From Microgenomates group bacterium (lineage in GTDB: Bacteria; Patescibacteriota; Microgenomatia; UBA8517), in NCBI GenBank assembly GCA_049301455.1, contig JBAQKY010000025.1, positions 1-60,500 of the forward strand: a stretch of DNA of 60,500 nt, in the 5' to 3' direction. The position numbers and the translations under genes were made by a program. Under the pieces are notes generated by a model. That model ran no database searches, was not told the origin of the DNA, and worked only from the letters and a program-made list of their open reading frames with translations. Shown here piece after piece: positions 2,410 to 48,634 of the stretch. Numbering within the stretch: the stretch's first letter is position 1; each line of letters opens with the position of its first letter.

Positions 2410-3415
2410 TTTTGTTATACTTAATTCTGTGAAAAATATACTTTCTTCTCCATACAAACTTTCTGCATTCATTGGAATAATTTTTGTAACAGGTATGGCT
2501 TTGGGTGCTGTTGGTTATACAAAATTTTTTAAGAAGTCAACACAATCAGCAACAAATAAAATTGTAACTAACTATCCCCTACCTCAAATAATTGAAGAAA
2601 AAAGAGAAACAAGCAAAGCGGCCAAAACTTTTAATATTCTTTTAACTGGTCATGGTGGTGCAGGACATTCAGGTGGAGGTTTGATGGATGCCATTTTGGT
2701 TGTAAACGTTAATTTAACAGATAAAAAGGCAAATTTGATATCTTTCCCCCGTGATTTTTGGTTCTCTGGTCACAAAATAAATGCTGATCCATCACTTAAA
2801 GATGCCTTAACTGGTGTAACAGGTTTACCAATTTCAAATTCTATCGCAATTGATTTTAACTCCTTTGTAAAAATGGTTGATTCATTGGGAGGTGTAACAG
2901 TTGATGTAAAGAAGGCCTATACAGATAACTTCTACCCCGTCAGGGGCAAGGAAAATGAACTTTGTGGATTCTCAAATGAAAAAATTGAAGAAGTACACAA
3001 ACTATATACTGGCTTTGAACTGGAGAAACAATTTACTTGTAGATATGAAACTATTTCATATAACGTAGGATTACATGAGATGAATGGTGAAGAGGCTTTA
3101 AAATACGTTAGGAGTCGTCACGGAGGCAGTGATTTTGAAAGGTCACATCATCAATTTGAAGTATTAAAAGCCATACTTCAAAAGGCAAATATATCCTCTG
3201 TTGGTAATGCGCTAGGCTTTGTTAAAACAGACTTAACACTAGAGAAGATTGAAGAGATGTTGTCCGAAATTGGAAATCCACTTGAATACGCAGTTTCATT
3301 TATTAATCTATCAGACCAAAATGTTTTACAGAATAGTAAAAGTACTCAGGGAGCTTATATCTTAATTCCTAAAGACGGAGTAAATATAAAAGAATATATT
3401 AAAGATAATTTGTAA
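2372..3415 (+). CDS. LytR-CpsA-Psr (LCP) family cell-envelope phosphotransferase; start uncertain (ATG 2372 or 2393, or GTG 2429)
   Basis: N-terminal TM segment followed by LCP motifs: MDAILVVNVNLTDKKANLISFPRD and EEALKYVRSRHGGSDFERSHHQ. Confidence 0.85.
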   Translation: MISTKPSMGGGNNFVILNSVKNILSSPYKLSAFIGIIFVTGMALGAVGYTKFFKKSTQSATNKIVTNYPLPQIIEEKRETSKAAKTFNILLTGHGGAGHSGGGLMDAILVVNVNLTDKKANLISFPRDFWFSGHKINADPSLKDALTGVTGLPISNSIAIDFNSFVKMVDSLGGVTVDVKKAYTDNFYPVRGKENELCGFSNEKIEEVHKLYTGFELEKQFTCRYETISYNVGLHEMNGEEALKYVRSRHGGSDFERSHHQFEVLKAILQKANISSVGNALGFVKTDLTLEKIEEMLSEIGNPLEYAVSFINLSDQNVLQNSKSTQGAYILIPKDGVNIKEYIKDNL

Positions 3416-3435: not shown

Positions 3436-4185
3436 TTATCTGATTTCGTATGAAAGACTTACTGTAACTGATATTTCTGTCTCTCCTGGAGTTACATTTG
3501 CAATTTCTGCTTGATCAGCGGACCCACCAAATGGCATTTCCTTTGTATACGATATTGGCCTTGGATAGTCCATTCCAAATGATTCAGAAACATTGATTAC
3601 TTTACCTAGTGTAATACCTGAAGCTTTTGCTAATCCTTCTGCCTTATTTTTTGCTAGTTTTACTGCTTCTTCTCTGGCTTTTTGTGTATATTCATCTTTT
3701 GTCTTTTCATTTACTTCAAAACTTATATTACCGATTACATTAGCACCTGATTCTGTAGCTATAGTTAGTGCATCATTTACCAACTCAAAATTTGTTATTT
3801 TAACTTCGTAATTAGTTGAAACTCTATATCCATTTATTTTATATGGTGAATTAGAATAGTCATATTCTGGATTAACACTGTAATTTGTTGTTTTAATGTC
3901 TTTCTCGTCAATTCCCAATTTCTTTAATGCATCAGTCAATGTTTTTGACTTTTTGTTTACAGAGTCTTGAACTTGCTTTAAATTTTGTCCCTGACTGTCA
4001 ATGCCAAATGAAACCTTTGCGATGTCAGGAACAACTGCAACCTTTCCAGTTTCTGATACTACCATTGGTTCACCTTTGGTCTGAGTTAAAACAGAAATTG
4101 GAAGTGACGGTCCAAACTTTGAATATACAAAAAGAAGGATAAAGAAAATTATTATACTACCAATGAATTCTACTCTTTTCTCCAT
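3436..4185 (-). CDS. SIMPL / DUF541 family secreted protein (26-kDa periplasmic immunogenic protein-like)
   Basis: Signal anchor, then GYRVSTNYEVKI...ANVIGNISFEV...KAREEAVKLAKNKAEGLAKASGITLGKVINVSE. Start placed at Met13 of the track ORF because a -10 box lies 6 nt upstream of it. Confidence 0.8.
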   Translation of the reverse strand: MEKRVEFIGSIIIFFILLFVYSKFGPSLPISVLTQTKGEPMVVSETGKVAVVPDIAKVSFGIDSQGQNLKQVQDSVNKKSKTLTDALKKLGIDEKDIKTTNYSVNPEYDYSNSPYKINGYRVSTNYEVKITNFELVNDALTIATESGANVIGNISFEVNEKTKDEYTQKAREEAVKLAKNKAEGLAKASGITLGKVINVSESFGMDYPRPISYTKEMPFGGSADQAEIANVTPGETEISVTVSLSYEIR

Positions 4186-25159: not shown

Positions 25160-25681
25160 ATGTTAAAAAATAAACAAAATATTATAAATATAAATAAGAA
25201 CAACACAAAGGGATTCTCCCTAGTTGAAATTTTAATTGTTGTTACAATTTTTGCTGTGATTGGGCTTCTTGCAACAAGATCCATATTTTTAACAATTAGA
25301 GGAGCAAAGAAAAGCGACTCGTTAGTTAGAGTCAGAGAAAATGTTAACTTTTCATTATCTGTTATTGAACGGCAACTCAGAAATTCAGAGAGTGTGACAT
25401 GTCCTAATGCATCCACAAGCACTTTGAATTATATTTCCATTGAAGGTACCTCAACTACGTTTAGTTGTGTCACTGCAGGGACGGATAAATATATTGCCTC
25501 AGGTTCTGCAAGACTAACTTCTGCTGACATTTCAGTTACAAGCTGTTCTTTTTCCTGCACTGTTGGGACTAATACACCGCCAACTGTAAAGATTGCAATT
25601 GAAGCGGAAGATAGCGAATCAACAAGCGTAGAAAAAGGTTCAGTTTCTGCCCAAACCCAAATAGTTGTAAGAAATTATTAA
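25160..25681 (+). CDS. Minor pilin-like protein (PilW/GspJ-like)
   Basis: ...NKNNTKG|FSLVEILIVVTIFAVIGLLA. Confidence 0.7.
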   Translation: MLKNKQNIININKNNTKGFSLVEILIVVTIFAVIGLLATRSIFLTIRGAKKSDSLVRVRENVNFSLSVIERQLRNSESVTCPNASTSTLNYISIEGTSTTFSCVTAGTDKYIASGSARLTSADISVTSCSFSCTVGTNTPPTVKIAIEAEDSESTSVEKGSVSAQTQIVVRNY

Positions 25682-43175: not shown

Positions 43176-44198
43176 TTACAATTGTTTCAAAACTCTTAAA
43201 TCATCACTGTAAAGCAATCTAATGTCTGGGACAGAAAGACCAGATTTCATCATGTATGTTCTTTCCACTCCCCATCCAAATGCAAACCCAGAATATGTTT
43301 TTGGATCAACTCCACATTCTTTTAAAACATTTGGATGAACCATACCTGCTCCACCAATTTCCAACCAACCCTCTTTACATAGTTTGCATCCCTTGCCGTT
43401 ACAAACATTACAAGAGATATCAACTTCAAATGATGGTTCTGTAAATTGGAAATGATAAGGTCTGAGCCTTGTTTCTCTGTTTGGTCCAAAGAATGTTTTA
43501 GCAAAATGGTCAATTGTGCCACGTAGGTGAGTAATTGAAATGTCTTTATCTACTACTAACCCTTCAAATTGGTGAAACATAGCAAGATGGCTAATATCAA
43601 GTTGCCTTCTGTAACACTTTGCAATATTAATCATCCTGATAGGTGGTTTGTTTGATAACATTTCTCTGATCTGCCCACTTGATGTGTGCGGTGTCAAAAG
43701 CATGGGACCATATTTTGATGATGTTGGAGCATCGACAAAGAAAGTTTCCCAATCGTCACGGGCTGGGTGATTGTCTGGAAAGTTAAGTGCACCAAAGGCA
43801 AAGTAATCGTATTCTACTTCTGGATATCTAACTCTAGTAAAACCGATCTTCTCAAAGACTTCTGAAATTTCATTTATGGCATTTGTTACCATGTGCAGAT
43901 GTCCTAGCTTTGGAAGTTCAGCTGGCATTGTGGGATCAAACCAAACCCGTGCGTTATTATTTAATTCATTCTTTTTGGTTGCAAGAAGTTCCAATAAAGT
44001 ATTCTTCACTTCGTTTAAAGTAATGCCATATTGCTTTTTCTCTTCTGGTGTAACTTTTGAAATGTCTTTTGAAGCAATTGTGAATTTGCCTGATTTACCA
44101 AACAAATCAATTCTAATTTGCTCTAATTCATTAAGGTCTGCACAATCGGAAACTCTAGCAATTGCTTGGTTTTTAATATTAATTAAATTATCATTCAT
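43176..44198 (-). CDS. pheS: Phenylalanyl-tRNA synthetase alpha subunit
   Basis: Class II motifs: FPDNHPARDDWETFF, RMINIAKCYRRQ, MFHQFEGLVVD and GFAFGWGVERTYM. Confidence 0.96.
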   Translation of the reverse strand: MNDNLINIKNQAIARVSDCADLNELEQIRIDLFGKSGKFTIASKDISKVTPEEKKQYGITLNEVKNTLLELLATKKNELNNNARVWFDPTMPAELPKLGHLHMVTNAINEISEVFEKIGFTRVRYPEVEYDYFAFGALNFPDNHPARDDWETFFVDAPTSSKYGPMLLTPHTSSGQIREMLSNKPPIRMINIAKCYRRQLDISHLAMFHQFEGLVVDKDISITHLRGTIDHFAKTFFGPNRETRLRPYHFQFTEPSFEVDISCNVCNGKGCKLCKEGWLEIGGAGMVHPNVLKECGVDPKTYSGFAFGWGVERTYMMKSGLSVPDIRLLYSDDLRVLKQL

Positions 44199-44237
44199 GT
44201 TAGTATTGTATTACTTTTTAGATATAAATTATACTGT

Positions 44238-44444
44238 TTATATTCCACTGTTTTTGGTTAAAATATCCCTTTCTTTACCTAATTTAATCCCATATTTCTT
44301 ACATCCTAATTTTAATGCAACAATGTAATCAGATGTTGTTGCTTCATGTTTTAGAATATTAGACAAAGCTTCTTGATATTTAAGTGCCTCCTCAAGTGTT
44401 AATGTATTATTTTGTTTTCCAATTCTTTCTGTCATGTAAATCAC
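44238..44444 (-). CDS. Hypothetical small protein, 68 aa (GTG 44444 or ATG 44435 start)
   Basis: Its start overlaps the stop of the upstream small ORF (GTGA). It lies between the Phe attenuator and pheS. Confidence 0.4.
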   Translation of the reverse strand: MIYMTERIGKQNNTLTLEEALKYQEALSNILKHEATTSDYIVALKLGCKKYGIKLGKERDILTKNSGI

Positions 44445-44623
44445 CTTCTTTCTGCTCCATTTGGTTTGATATCCATATCATTTTTATGTTCGATTTCAGT
44501 TGACTCTTCATCAATACGACTGTCCTTATTTAGCTCGCTTATAATATCAACAGCTTCTGCAACTACTTGTTGCTTATTCTTGTCTTCGTGACCCTCATTA
44601 ATTAATAGTTGTATTATGCTCAT
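44441..44623 (-). CDS. Hypothetical acidic small protein, 60 aa, from Met20 of the track ORF
   Basis: The track ORF's N-terminal 19 codons overlap the attenuator terminator hairpin. Met20 (MSIIQLLINEGHEDK...) lies just downstream of the U-tract. Confidence 0.35.
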   Translation of the reverse strand: MSIIQLLINEGHEDKNKQQVVAEAVDIISELNKDSRIDEESTEIEHKNDMDIKPNGAERR

Positions 44624-44634
44624 ATTTTTAAACC

Positions 44635-44660
44635 AACAAAAAACCTCCTTGTGGGAGGTT
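44635..44660 (-). terminator. Attenuator terminator (segments 3:4)
   Basis: Minus-strand RNA: AACCUCC-cacaa-GGAGGUU followed by UUUUGUUGGUUU. Confidence 0.7.
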
Positions 44661-44685
44661 GAAACGAACGCAAACTTCAACCTCC
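44654..44685 (-). promoter_or_regulatory. Attenuator antiterminator (segments 2:3), mutually exclusive with the terminator
   Basis: Minus-strand RNA: GGAGGUUGAA-guuugcguucgu-UUCAACCUCC (10 bp). It sequesters the 5' strand of the terminator. Confidence 0.65.
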
Positions 44686-44686
44686 G

Positions 44687-44731
44687 TTAGGAAGTAAAGA
44701 AGAATGCAAAAAATGTATTATTTAAATTCAT
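44687..44731 (-). CDS. pheM: Phe-rich leader peptide (pheM-like), 14 codons
   Basis: AUG AAU UUA AAU AAU ACA UUU UUU GCA UUC UUC UUU ACU UCC UAA encodes MNLNNTFFAFFFTS (5 Phe). It starts 13 nt after the rplT stop and stops 1 nt before the antiterminator. Confidence 0.65.
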   Translation of the reverse strand: MNLNNTFFAFFFTS

Positions 44732-44744
44732 ATTGTTTATATTA

Positions 44745-45089
44745 TTACTTTGTTTTAAAAGATGCAACTATTTTTTCAAAAACAGTTGGATTTTTTGCGG
44801 CTACATCTGAAAGGATTTTTCTATCTAATTCAATTTTGTTTGTTTTTAAATTGTTAATAAGTCTTGAATATGAAGTTCCAAGAGATTTTGCAGCTGCTGA
44901 TAATCTAACAATCCACAAACTTCTTAAATCTCTTTTCTTAAGCTTTCTACCATGAAATGCATATGCACCAGCATGCATAACTGCTTCATGAGCAACTTTG
45001 TATCTTCTTGATCTTGCTGCATGAAAACCTTTAGCCTGTTTTAAGACTTTTCTGTGTTTTCTTGCTGCTAATGATTTTACTCTTGCCAT
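44745..45089 (-). CDS. rplT: 50S ribosomal protein L20
   Basis: MARVKSLAARKHRKVLKQAKGFHAARSRRYKVA. Confidence 0.96.
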   Translation of the reverse strand: MARVKSLAARKHRKVLKQAKGFHAARSRRYKVAHEAVMHAGAYAFHGRKLKKRDLRSLWIVRLSAAAKSLGTSYSRLINNLKTNKIELDRKILSDVAAKNPTVFEKIVASFKTK

Positions 45090-45090
45090 A

Positions 45091-45312
45091 TTATTTCCCT
45101 GTTCCTTTCAAGACCTTACCTAAAAACTTTCTAAGTCTTCTTGCCAACACTTTCTTAACTGGTGTAACTCTTGATAATCTATTTAATCTATTCTTGCTTT
45201 TTGAGGCATTCAAATGTCTCTTGAAAGCTTTTCTACGCAAAACTTTACCATTCTTGGTAACTCTAATTCTATTTGTTACTAATTGCTTAGTTTTGACTTT
45301 TGTTTTTGCCAT
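45091..45312 (-). CDS. rpmI: 50S ribosomal protein L35
   Basis: Small, highly basic protein (MAKTKVKTKQ...RIRVTKNGKVLRRKAFKRHL). Positioned between infC and rplT. Confidence 0.92.
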   Translation of the reverse strand: MAKTKVKTKQLVTNRIRVTKNGKVLRRKAFKRHLNASKSKNRLNRLSRVTPVKKVLARRLRKFLGKVLKGTGK

Positions 45313-45838
45313 ATGTATTTGTTGGTGAAATTATCATTATTAGATTTCTGCCTAAGAACTTTGGCTTCATGTCTACATTAATTCCTTCACCTAAATCTTT
45401 CAATACTCTTCCCATCATGTCGTATCCAAATTGCTTTGAACCCAACTGTTTTATCTTAAAGTATACTACTAATTTTACTTTATCTTTACCCCTTAAAAAC
45501 TCATCAATTCTCTTCAAGCGAGTTTGATAATCTCCTTCACCTATAAAAGGTGTAAATCTTATCTCTTTTAAGCTACTTGGCTTACTCTTTTTCTGAGCTT
45601 CCTTAGCTTTCTTCTCCTCTTGATACTTAAATTTACCAAATTCAATAATTTTAGCTACAGGTGGATTAGCATTTGCTACAATTTCAATTAAATCGTCCCC
45701 TTTGTCTTGGGCCATTTTAATTGCTTCCTCCTTAGAAAATATCCCTAGCTGTTTACCTTCTGCGTCTAAGACGCGTAGTGTTTGAGCAGGAATTCTTTCG
45801 TTTAAACGCCAGTTATTACTGATACTTTTCAATTTCAA
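45287..45838 (-). CDS. infC: Translation initiation factor IF-3 (TTG start in the track)
   Basis: Motifs NERIPAQTLRVLDAEGKQLG, PPVAKIIEFGKFKYQ and KEIRF. Confidence 0.93.
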   Translation of the reverse strand: MKLKSISNNWRLNERIPAQTLRVLDAEGKQLGIFSKEEAIKMAQDKGDDLIEIVANANPPVAKIIEFGKFKYQEEKKAKEAQKKSKPSSLKEIRFTPFIGEGDYQTRLKRIDEFLRGKDKVKLVVYFKIKQLGSKQFGYDMMGRVLKDLGEGINVDMKPKFLGRNLIMIISPTNTYGKNKSQN

Positions 45839-45879
45839 TAGTGATTGTACCTAAAAATGACAATAGTAGCAAGAAGATA

Positions 45880-46737
45880 TTATATTAATTTGTTTTTGAT
45901 GAAATCTTCAACAATATCTACTAATTCTATCTTTTTACCAGTAAAACTATGGTCTGTGTCTGAAATTGTTTCTATCTGAGCATTTGAGTTTTCATTCTTT
46001 AGCAGAGTAACCGTATCAACTCCTAGCATTTCATTCCATTCATCTGTGTCACAGATAACACCCAAAATAGGTACTTTTATGTTTTGGTAATAAACTAAAC
46101 CTTTACCTTTTCTTAGAGGTAACGCCTTTGATAGTTCGGAGCCTTCACTAAAACAATTTACATATGAATTTGCAGTTTTTGGTAATACTCCTGCATGGCA
46201 CAAATGAATTGAGGTGATTAATTCATGCCCTCTATCTTCCTTGATAAGTTCTAAAGCATTTATCATTGGATCAATCTTTTGTGTTTCTAAAAATTTCATT
46301 TGGCAACCGAATGAGTCTGCAAAACCTAGAAGTATCACTCCAATAATTTTATCCTTGTGTTTACCCTTTTCCATATAATATGTAACTTTTTCTGTTCCTA
46401 ATGAATGCCCTTGAAGAATTATTTTTTTGTAGCCTTTGTCTAATGCAAATTCTATCCATGTATCTATATCTATTAGGCATTCTTCAAACTTTTCTCTTGC
46501 GCAACCAGTTGCTTGCCAACTTTCTAGTGTGTAGTTACCTCTGTTGTTTGTAAATAAAACTGAAATGTCTAATTTGGGCAGTCTTTCAACAAACTCCCCT
46601 TCAAATTCCTCTGCATAGAAGCACGATCCTGTTCCATGAATATTTATTAGGATGGTGTCTTTTTTGCTGGTTTCAGATAGAAAGCCAAAAAGTGCAATGT
46701 CGTCAGAAGTTTTAACCTTTACTATTGGATAGTTCAT
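45880..46737 (-). CDS. Alpha/beta hydrolase-fold protein, from Met43 of the track ORF
   Basis: GHSLGTEK nucleophile elbow and a late DTDH. The Met43 start removes the overlap with the thrS 3' end. Confidence 0.7.
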   Translation of the reverse strand: MNYPIVKVKTSDDIALFGFLSETSKKDTILINIHGTGSCFYAEEFEGEFVERLPKLDISVLFTNNRGNYTLESWQATGCAREKFEECLIDIDTWIEFALDKGYKKIILQGHSLGTEKVTYYMEKGKHKDKIIGVILLGFADSFGCQMKFLETQKIDPMINALELIKEDRGHELITSIHLCHAGVLPKTANSYVNCFSEGSELSKALPLRKGKGLVYYQNIKVPILGVICDTDEWNEMLGVDTVTLLKNENSNAQIETISDTDHSFTGKKIELVDIVEDFIKNKLI

Positions 46738-48481: not shown

Positions 48482-48634
48482 ATTAAATATAATTATATAC
48501 TTAAGAAGACGATATCTCTATTGAAGATTCGTGGTTCCACTTCTCTTTTAACTCTTTCTCATTCAATTAATCTCTTTAGATTGGTTAATTCTAAATGCAA
48601 ACGATTAATTAACTGATACAAGTATCATATTGCA

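Follow-up and report, generated by a model that had tools for sequence, protein, structure and literature searches.

We analyzed a 60,500-nt window of DNA from a Microgenomates group bacterium (contig JBAQKY010000025.1, positions 1 to 60,500), focusing on a short element between rplT and pheST that an initial annotation had described as a Phe-responsive transcription attenuator. All coordinates given without a locus name refer to this window, which has a G+C content of 33%. Its PheS is 67-94% identical to Woesebacteria and Microgenomates metagenome-bin proteins, which places the host in the candidate phyla radiation (CPR, or Patescibacteria). The genes of interest lie on the minus strand in the order thrS, a hydrolase-like open reading frame (ORF), infC, rpmI, rplT, the leader/attenuator, orfA, orfB, pheS and pheT. 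thrS occupies 48481-46742. rplT (44745..45089, from the ORF list) codes for the 114-amino-acid ribosomal protein L20, and the identical gene in a related locus (L001) matches Pfam Ribosomal_L20. Its TAA stop codon (44747-44745) is separated from the leader ATG by a 13-nt spacer. The presumed regulated genes are pheS (44198-43176), whose homologs carry the Pfam domain tRNA-synt_2d, and pheT (43157-41217, from the ORF list). Two small genes precede them: orfA (44441..44623), the first ORF 3' of the terminator, codes for an acidic protein of 60 amino acids, and orfB (44238..44432) codes for 64 amino acids, or 68 if translation starts from a GTG at 44444.

The leader ORF spans 44687..44731 on the minus strand and, by direct reading, consists of 14 codons plus TAA, encoding MNLNNTFFAFFFTS. 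It begins with ATG (44731), AAT, TTA, AAT, AAT and ACA, continues with TTT TTT, GCA and TTC TTC TTT, and ends with ACT, TCC and TAA (44689-44687). Phe codons make up 5 of the 14 (codons 7, 8, 10, 11 and 12, at 44713-44708 and 44704-44696) and 5 of the last 8 sense codons. When we examined all 808 ATG-initiated mini-ORFs of 8-35 codons in the window, 19 were Phe-rich, and the leader was both the shortest and the most Phe-dense of these. No Shine-Dalgarno (SD) sequence was seen 5' of the leader ATG.

Four RNA segments overlap or follow the leader ORF, all on the minus strand. Segment 1 (GCAUUCUUCUUUACUUCC, 44690..44707) corresponds to codons 9-14, including three Phe codons, and can pair with segment 2 (GGAGGUUGAAGUUUGC, 44670..44685). 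Segment 2 can instead pair with segment 3 (UUUCAACCUCC, 44654..44664) to form an 11-bp antiterminator. The core of segment 2, GGAGGTTGAA (44685-44676), is separated from the leader stop by a single nucleotide (c), and a 12-nt loop lies between it and the segment 3 core, TTCAACCTCC (44663-44654). Through AACCUCC, segment 3 can also pair with segment 4 (GGAGGUU, 44648-44642), from which it is separated by cacaa. Directly 3' of segment 4 is TTTTGTTGGTTT (44641-44630); segment 4 and the U-tract UUUUGUUGGUUU together span 44630..44648. A terminator scan predicted an intrinsic terminator here, with a 7-bp stem containing four G-C pairs, a 5-nt loop and then UUUUGUUGGUUU. No other site resembling an intrinsic terminator was found on this strand between 41000 and 49000. 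The 1:2 helix consists of GCA/UGC, CUUC/GAAG and ACUUCC/GGAGGU. Phe codons 10-12 thus belong to segment 1, and the loop of the 1:2 hairpin contains the UAA, which precedes segment 2 by 1 nt.

We compared the alternative structures by folding the RNA from 44620-44750. Both the minimum free energy (MFE) structure and the centroid contained the 1:2 hairpin together with the 3:4 terminator. The calculated energies were -15.8 kcal/mol for 1:2, -9.6 for 3:4, -25.4 for 1:2 plus 3:4, and -14.9 for 2:3. Because the combination of 1:2 and 3:4 is lowest in energy, the predicted default state is termination. Because 2:3 is more stable than 3:4, the antiterminator is predicted to win once segment 1 is masked, as attenuation requires. 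These analyses bear out most of the initial annotation. Its reading of the 14-codon ORF 13 nt after rplT, the five Phe codons, segments 2-4, the cacaa linker and the U-tract agreed with ours base for base, and the competition it proposed for segment 3 was reproduced by the folds and energies, including the two conformers that it had proposed to compare. The 1:2 hairpin it described is present in the MFE fold, but the helix is longer than the ACUUCC/GGAGGU pairing noted there and takes in the last three Phe codons.

The antiterminator duplex in the window has an energy of -16.9 kcal/mol, and only one other terminator in the window exceeds this value. That hairpin (25636-25658, minus strand), whose upstream complement scores -17.5 kcal/mol, is not an attenuator: the flanking genes are convergent, there is no leader ORF, and the site is antisense to a plus-strand ORF. 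We also observed that segments 2 and 4 are near-copies, so that segment 1 is able to pair with segment 4 as well (44632-44731, minus strand). RNAalifold, applied to five close elements, preferred a nested conformer containing 2:3 and 1:4 (-21.6 kcal/mol). This conformer may represent a third state, in which the 1:4 stem also adjoins the U-tract.

Statistics drawn from the window by itself were modest, and the case for an attenuator therefore leans on comparison with relatives. We collected 160 loci encoding PheS proteins with 54-86% identity to that of the window and added six more from the closest relatives. In 115 non-redundant loci, pheS was preceded by rplT. Of these, 25 had an ATG-initiated, Phe-rich mini-ORF whose start was no more than 54 nt from the rplT stop, compared to a background of 0.016 per 60-nt window in the same loci. 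The F-rich ORFs and alternative hairpins that the initial annotation suggested seeking in relatives are indeed present there. Most of the 25 leader ATGs fell between -4 and +13 nt relative to the rplT stop, and several overlapped it as ATGA. In relatives, segment 2 follows the leader stop codon at a distance of -1 to +3 nt or, in a subtype whose peptides end in ..GR, has the stop about 9 nt inside it. In L165 and L166, the leader peptide is identical to that of the window even though PheS is only 86% identical and the loop between segments 2 and 3 has diverged, which indicates purifying selection on the leader. The L084 leader differs from that of the window in having lost one TTC codon, which leaves the reading frame intact, as expected of a constraint at the level of translation.

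At least two RNA classes with unrelated sequences retain the same three mutually exclusive helices. In class A, to which the window element belongs, the peptide ends in ..FFTS or ..FFAS and the stop codon is followed by GGAGG..CCUCC..GGAGG-U. Examples of class A leaders are MNLNNVYFVNFFTS (L086), MNTNVNSYFAFFTS (L007), MTTTLKAFFAFFAS, MKHSVLFFGFFATS, MTSIVVNSFFFAFA and MFSRRFSFFFFTFA. Class B elements have GGUGGAGA as segment 2, UCUCCACC as segment 3 and the terminator AGCUCUCC..GGAGAGCU, with leaders such as MKSFFFASFFG, MKFFFFSGFFGNIS and MRLFFFTSFYFRIS. Folding of sub-segments gave the same outcome for both classes: those mimicking a ribosome stalled at the Phe run formed 2:3, and those mimicking a ribosome on the stop codon formed 3:4. 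We then compared the antiterminator potential of terminators near rplT with that of 249 other terminators from the same loci and the window, pairing the 5' arm and loop of each terminator with the preceding 70 nt. Complementarity was stronger for the rplT-proximal terminators (median -11.9 versus -8.3 kcal/mol; Mann-Whitney U test, p 6e-5), 36% of which reached -14 kcal/mol or lower, compared to 7% of controls.

MAFFT alignments had left segment 2 out of register, and we aligned the elements with a covariance model (CM) seeded from the segment 2-4 core of the window and L086. Searching with this model returned exactly one site in the 60.5-kb window and 37 credible sites in the loci, and it added further cases of a Phe-rich mini-ORF behind rplT. 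Across the 37 elements, the 2:3 helix was 95% paired, with double (compensatory) changes at 9 of 11 pairs; these counts are somewhat inflated by an alignment that was fitted to the 2:3 structure. The 2:3 covariation score was 0.263, compared to 0.106 for shuffled alignments (0 of 500 shuffles reached the observed value) and at most 0.065 for slid registers. The 3:4 helix was 90% paired. Its covariation on fixed columns was weak (0.155 versus 0.115) because segment 3 is highly conserved and the register shifts among elements, and for this helix we count only the degree of pairing as evidence. Pairing of segment 2 with the 46 nt upstream of it, which represents the 1:2 helix, was better than in composition-matched shuffles (p<=0.05) for 20 of 34 elements (Fisher p 7e-19), although shuffle statistics for phylogenetically related loci are not true probabilities.

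The amino acid that dominates the leader changes with the gene downstream. In 4-5 of 32 relatives, a leader with a run of Thr codons and the same three-helix attenuator lies directly upstream of thrS. Separate Thr-run leaders were found in L067:568-661 (MLLLTTTTTSSA), L011:87-184 (MKIFTTTTTSC), L069:~50-143 (MNKQFALTTTTAL) and L034:495-593 (MTQLTHNITTQNRPL). In L027:460-562, the Thr run is the C-terminus (..RPETTTTTAA, then stop) of an upstream methyltransferase-like gene that ends at segment 2. Segment 1 of the thrS-type elements is made of ACN codons, and segment 2 is altered to match (GGAGUUGAUGUGG, GGAGGUAGUUUUGUGG). We found no Thr leader in the region upstream of thrS in the window (48482-48634).

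A third group of leaders is rich in Phe, Tyr and Trp (MQNYNWFYFTS.., MIKIINFGFYFT.., MKSFATVWSYFTS..) and lies 5' of 3-deoxy-D-arabino-heptulosonate 7-phosphate (DAHP) synthase or of small conserved ORFs toward pheS. In L036, such an attenuator (2336-2463) is followed by an ORF (2483-3307) for DAHP synthase (Pfam DAHP_synth_1, 3e-22). Others were located at L015:2485-2593, L017:992-1100, L039:3051-3159, L065:2999-3105, L133:770-874, L137:1833-1937 and L041:~190-322. The leaders of this group, with motifs such as ..NWFYFTS.., ..FGFYFT.. and ..VWSYFTS.., also precede ORFs of 70-100 amino acids between rplT and pheS. The fetched stretches of L017 and L041 contain no rplT, and the L041 element is 5' of a 304-amino-acid ORF. 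A leader composition that matches the amino acid of the downstream gene is the hallmark of attenuation; we regard it as the decisive additional evidence, and it is hard to reconcile with any of the competing explanations considered below.

Taken together, these results lead us to conclude with high confidence that the element is a classical ribosome-mediated transcription attenuator, predicted to sense the charging of Phe-tRNA(Phe) and to gate read-through from infC-rpmI-rplT into orfA-orfB-pheS-pheT. The features expected of this class were all found in the sequence: a co-oriented ORF, a cluster of cognate codons, mutually exclusive 1:2, 2:3 and 3:4 helices, a predicted Rho-independent terminator, and the appropriate geometry of the stop codon and segments. 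The four-segment logic put forward in the initial annotation is thus upheld, with its sequence-level features present in the window and kept in relatives and with a leader residue that tracks the gene. Control of pheST by Phe-tRNA charging is what we infer from these features. The remaining doubt about a Phe-responsive attenuator is entirely about function in vivo.

In the model that we propose, transcription would come in from rplT, and a ribosome that has finished rplT would reinitiate 13 nt further on, at the leader ATG, which lacks an SD. We favor reinitiation because the spacing of -4 to +13 nt is kept in relatives and because the genome appears to be SD-less, as the initial annotation had also judged: an SD core occurs at -20..-4 for 3 of 53 window ORFs of at least 150 amino acids, compared to 6 of 53 in a control window. 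Ribosomes on the leader would thus probably come from rplT, through termination-reinitiation. A promoter and terminator scan predicted no site of either kind between rplT and the leader, which we count as weak evidence. When Phe-tRNA is plentiful, the ribosome would reach the UAA and mask segment 2, so that 3:4 forms and transcription ends at ~44630-44641. Without any ribosome, 1:2 and 3:4 would form, likewise causing termination. When Phe-tRNA is scarce, a ribosome stalled at codons 7-12 would mask segment 1; 2:3 would then form in place of the terminator, and orfA-orfB-pheST would be transcribed.

We compared the window element to known attenuators, beginning with pheM of Escherichia coli, for which attenuation is experimentally established (PMC5371410 and references therein). 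The E. coli cluster has the order thrS-infC-rpmI-rplT-leader-pheS-pheT, and the window element shares the position between rplT and pheST that characterizes the pheM subtype. The initial annotation had equated the two positions; the cluster order is the same, but orfA and orfB intervene between the terminator and pheS in the window. It had also stated correctly that pheM has 14 codons, five of them for Phe, as the E. coli sequence confirms. Both pheM and MNLNNTFFAFFFTS have their Phe codons grouped in the second half and finish with Ser/Thr codons. Five nucleotides after the pheM stop is GGAGGCU, and the terminator is AGCCUCC-cagu-GGAGGCU-U7; the window element shares this GGAGG/CCUCC/GGAGG theme. 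When we searched the E. coli locus with the CM derived from the window, the only match fell exactly on the pheM attenuator, albeit weakly (15.6 bits, E ~0.1).

The two elements also differ. pheM begins 122 nt after rplT, behind a hairpin, and has its own transcription and translation signals, whereas the window leader begins 13 nt after rplT, lacks an SD and is not separated from rplT by a terminator. The spacer between segments 2 and 3 is 12 nt in the window and ~45 nt in pheM, and the window element, with two extra ORFs between terminator and pheS, resides in a CPR host. A segment 1 made of UUY codons and a few C's dictates a purine-rich segment 2, a pyrimidine-rich segment 3 and a purine-rich segment 4. 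The purine/pyrimidine pattern shared with pheM may therefore be forced by the UUY codons, and convergence seems to us no less likely than homology.

The window leader (TFFAFFFTS) also resembles that of E. coli pheL, a short Phe-run leader with the motif FFAFFFT and the same four-segment logic. Groups of pheL leaders are described in PMC3082878. The pheL-pheA system differs in that it regulates a biosynthetic enzyme, not an aminoacyl-tRNA synthetase (aaRS), and occupies another genomic location; the sequence-level comparison is the Rfam Phe_leader scan, which was negative. Leader-peptide attenuation of aaRS genes has been described in gamma-proteobacteria and some Streptomyces (trpS, leuS), with Firmicutes using T-boxes (PMC1262725). 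The Streptomyces attenuators control aaRS genes outside the Proteobacteria and so parallel the Phe/pheS and Thr/thrS pairs reported here, but they involve other amino acids, phyla and sequences and are not preceded by a linked ribosomal protein gene. T-box leaders likewise gate aaRS transcription according to tRNA charging through a choice between terminator and antiterminator. They differ in binding tRNA directly, in their length of ~200 nt and in lacking a leader ORF, whereas the window element has a Phe-rich ORF.

The window element had no match in Rfam, whose leader families the initial annotation had proposed to search. Scans of the whole window at gathering thresholds and of 44100-45900 at E<=10 returned only two tRNAs and noise, a scan of 20 relatives' loci at gathering thresholds returned nothing, and Rfam 15 contains no family that matches the window element. 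Membership in Phe_leader (RF01859) was rejected since there was no hit in 44100-45900 at E<=10, with E. coli pheM scoring 75 bits as a positive control (gathering 55). T-box membership (RF00230) was rejected for want of a hit in the window. The L20 leader (RF00558) was rejected because no hit at E<=10 was found across 44100-45900, which covers infC-rpmI-rplT and the spacer, and because the element is downstream of rplT.

Several observations weigh against a functional, Phe-specific attenuator and must be set beside the evidence for it. The z score of the whole-region MFE was a modest -2.46 relative to dinucleotide shuffles, and the 1:2 pairing in the window alone was marginal (z=-2.0, p=0.05 versus shuffles). 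The fitted alignment and the relatedness of the loci, mentioned above, temper the comparative statistics. The distance from rplT to pheS is 546 nt, with orfA and orfB between the terminator and pheS, and a promoter-like hexamer pair at 44435-44406 (10/12 matches) could drive pheST independently. The separate leader ORF has been lost in several of the nearest relatives (L082, L002, L085, L129, L163 and L164) and the terminator in L167 and L168. From these losses we conclude that the element is dispensable or fast-evolving in the genus of the window.

One competing explanation is that the element is a relic, an intact ancestral attenuator from which pheST was uncoupled by the insertion of orfA/orfB and possibly by a new promoter. 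The spacer between rplT and pheS is in fact a hot spot for variable small ORFs 3' of the attenuator. These include 44238-44623 (minus strand) in the window, L084:1130-1354, L142:2674-2889, L007:3207-3434, L086:1866-2105 and L141:814-1008; those of the relatives are Cys-rich proteins of 65-90 amino acids (e.g. MAREIKIKCCEGNEQYAGQC..). Decay can also be seen directly among close relatives, of which L163, L164, L082 and L002 are leaderless. In L167:1938-2340, and similarly in L168, an Asp_protease-like gene has been inserted and is fused in frame to ..RDTFAFFFTS, then stop; segments 2 and 3 are intact, but segment 4 and the T-tract have been replaced (..AACCTCCcacatagtgatttt..). The window element shows none of this decay: it retains segments 1-4, both the start and the stop codon, and each of the five Phe codons. 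Purifying selection, as indicated by the leader shared with L165 and L166, would not be expected of a relic. The scan of the minus strand predicted no terminator between the attenuator and pheT, and promoter-like hits in the window, such as that at 44435-44406, are no more common than in shuffles. We therefore consider a relic improbable.

A second explanation is that 3:4 is the plain intrinsic terminator of the infC-rpmI-rplT operon and that the Phe-rich mini-ORF and its complements arose by chance in an AT- and T-rich spacer. An AT-rich genome does yield many Phe-rich mini-ORFs, as the 19 in the window illustrate, and both the z score of the fold and the low covariation of 3:4 would fit chance. 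Against it, dozens of divergent relatives, and a second class of unrelated sequence, share the ORF, its frame, a stop codon beside segment 2 and the two alternative helices, and the leader residue changes to Thr upstream of thrS. This explanation is very unlikely.

Variants lacking a separate leader raise a third possibility, namely that the element is a general sensor of translational coupling in which any ribosome that stops near segment 2 triggers transcription termination and any slowdown of translation on rplT or the leader causes read-through, which would tie pheST to translation of the L20 operon. The rplT stop and the start of segment 2 are separated by -4 to +2 nt at 15 loci, where the 3' end of rplT contains segment 1 and only one or two Phe codons are nearby. 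Leaderless elements were mapped to L082:2376-2426, L002:3412-3461, L085:2421-2472, L129:3431-3483, L163:2113-2170 and L164:2433-2490, and others are found in L096, L006, L092, L003, L152, L004, L030, L031, L035 and L040. L20 frequently carries a leader-like tail at these loci (..AGFSFTSKE, ..NFTS or ..KFTSQ, each followed by the stop), which suggests that the leader has been fused onto rplT. rplT itself may serve as the leader ORF in the leaderless variants, or these may be relics. The window leader is also coupled tightly to rplT, being 13 nt away and without an SD. A sensor of this kind would have no reason to be specific, and yet Phe dominates the last eight sense codons of the window leader and family leaders are Phe- or aromatic-rich before pheS and Thr-rich before thrS. 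We find a non-specific sensor harder still to credit.

One related locus carries a different regulator in the same place. In L149:805-988, a T-box-like leader lies between rplT and pheS (RF00230, 48.4 bits, E 4.8e-8, which is below the gathering score of 93), indicating that, within one clade, T-box and leader-peptide attenuator occupy this slot as alternatives. In E. coli and Bacillus, mRNA structures are known to mediate autoregulation of the L20 operon by L20 itself. Despite these precedents (the L149 leader is in exactly the same position), the idea that the window element is a protein- or tRNA-binding RNA, whether a site for L20 autoregulation or a riboswitch of the T-box type, can be set aside with near certainty, given the lack of an Rfam match in 44100-45900 (E<=10) or in the window at gathering thresholds, a length of ~100 nt that is too short for a T-box, and a location downstream, not upstream, of rplT.

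A direct comparison showed that orfA has a counterpart of equal length and 73% identity in L165, and it is probably co-regulated cargo; orfB is not conserved in L165. Pfam searches assigned no family to orfA or orfB, and among the relatives' small post-attenuator ORFs the only assignments were DAHP_synth_1 in L036 and a weak match to HD in L086. We also observed a sequence motif (..CGTATACGAATAGTAT..GCCGAGTGCGAAAAC..) common to L006:~1960-2035, L136:~95-160 and L069:~3440-3500, where it lies 3' of the terminator and 5' of pheS or an AlaX-like ORF. It had no Rfam match at E<=0.5 and could be another cis-regulatory RNA. TATAAT-like sequences occur close 5' of many ORF starts in the window, which suggests leaderless or short-leader mRNAs.

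For the window element itself the mechanism is textbook, and the surprise is its host and its evolutionary variants, not a new principle. Judged from the compared loci, the element belongs to a previously unannotated, lineage-wide family of predicted attenuators with leader-fused variants. As a tentative extension, which we hold to be possible without favoring it, this family may constitute a lineage-wide attenuation regulon of the Microgenomates, bacteria with very few conventional regulators and largely without SD sequences; it would cover Phe/pheST, Thr/thrS and aromatic amino acids with DAHP synthase and small genes. The attenuators would be read by ribosomes coming off the upstream gene and in many genomes would be fused to that gene, as in the L20 tails and the methyltransferase-like protein ending in ..ETTTTTAA, so that an entire functional ORF would act as the leader. 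Such an arrangement would tie PheRS to both Phe-tRNA charging and translation of the L20 operon, and the GGAGG/CCUCC/GGAGG pattern shared with E. coli pheM could reflect an ancient common origin of the rplT-pheM-pheST arrangement and not convergence.

In the literature that we searched, which left out most subscription journals, we came across no account of leader-peptide attenuation in CPR bacteria, Patescibacteria or Microgenomates. The family, with its Phe, Thr and aromatic versions, two RNA classes and leader-fused variants, has no entry in Rfam and, to judge from the same literature, has not been described before. CPR bacteria are uncultivated organisms with reduced genomes that are mostly unable to make amino acids. 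To our knowledge, almost nothing has been established about gene regulation in this group. A conserved attenuator implies that transcription and translation are coupled tightly enough for the position of a ribosome to decide termination. It also implies that CPR bacteria monitor tRNA charging and adjust aaRS levels by RNA alone. At ~100 nt, the element would represent a compact, portable system in which to ask whether attenuation operates with SD-less termination-reinitiation, and the family would provide annotatable regulatory elements for thousands of metagenome-assembled genomes.

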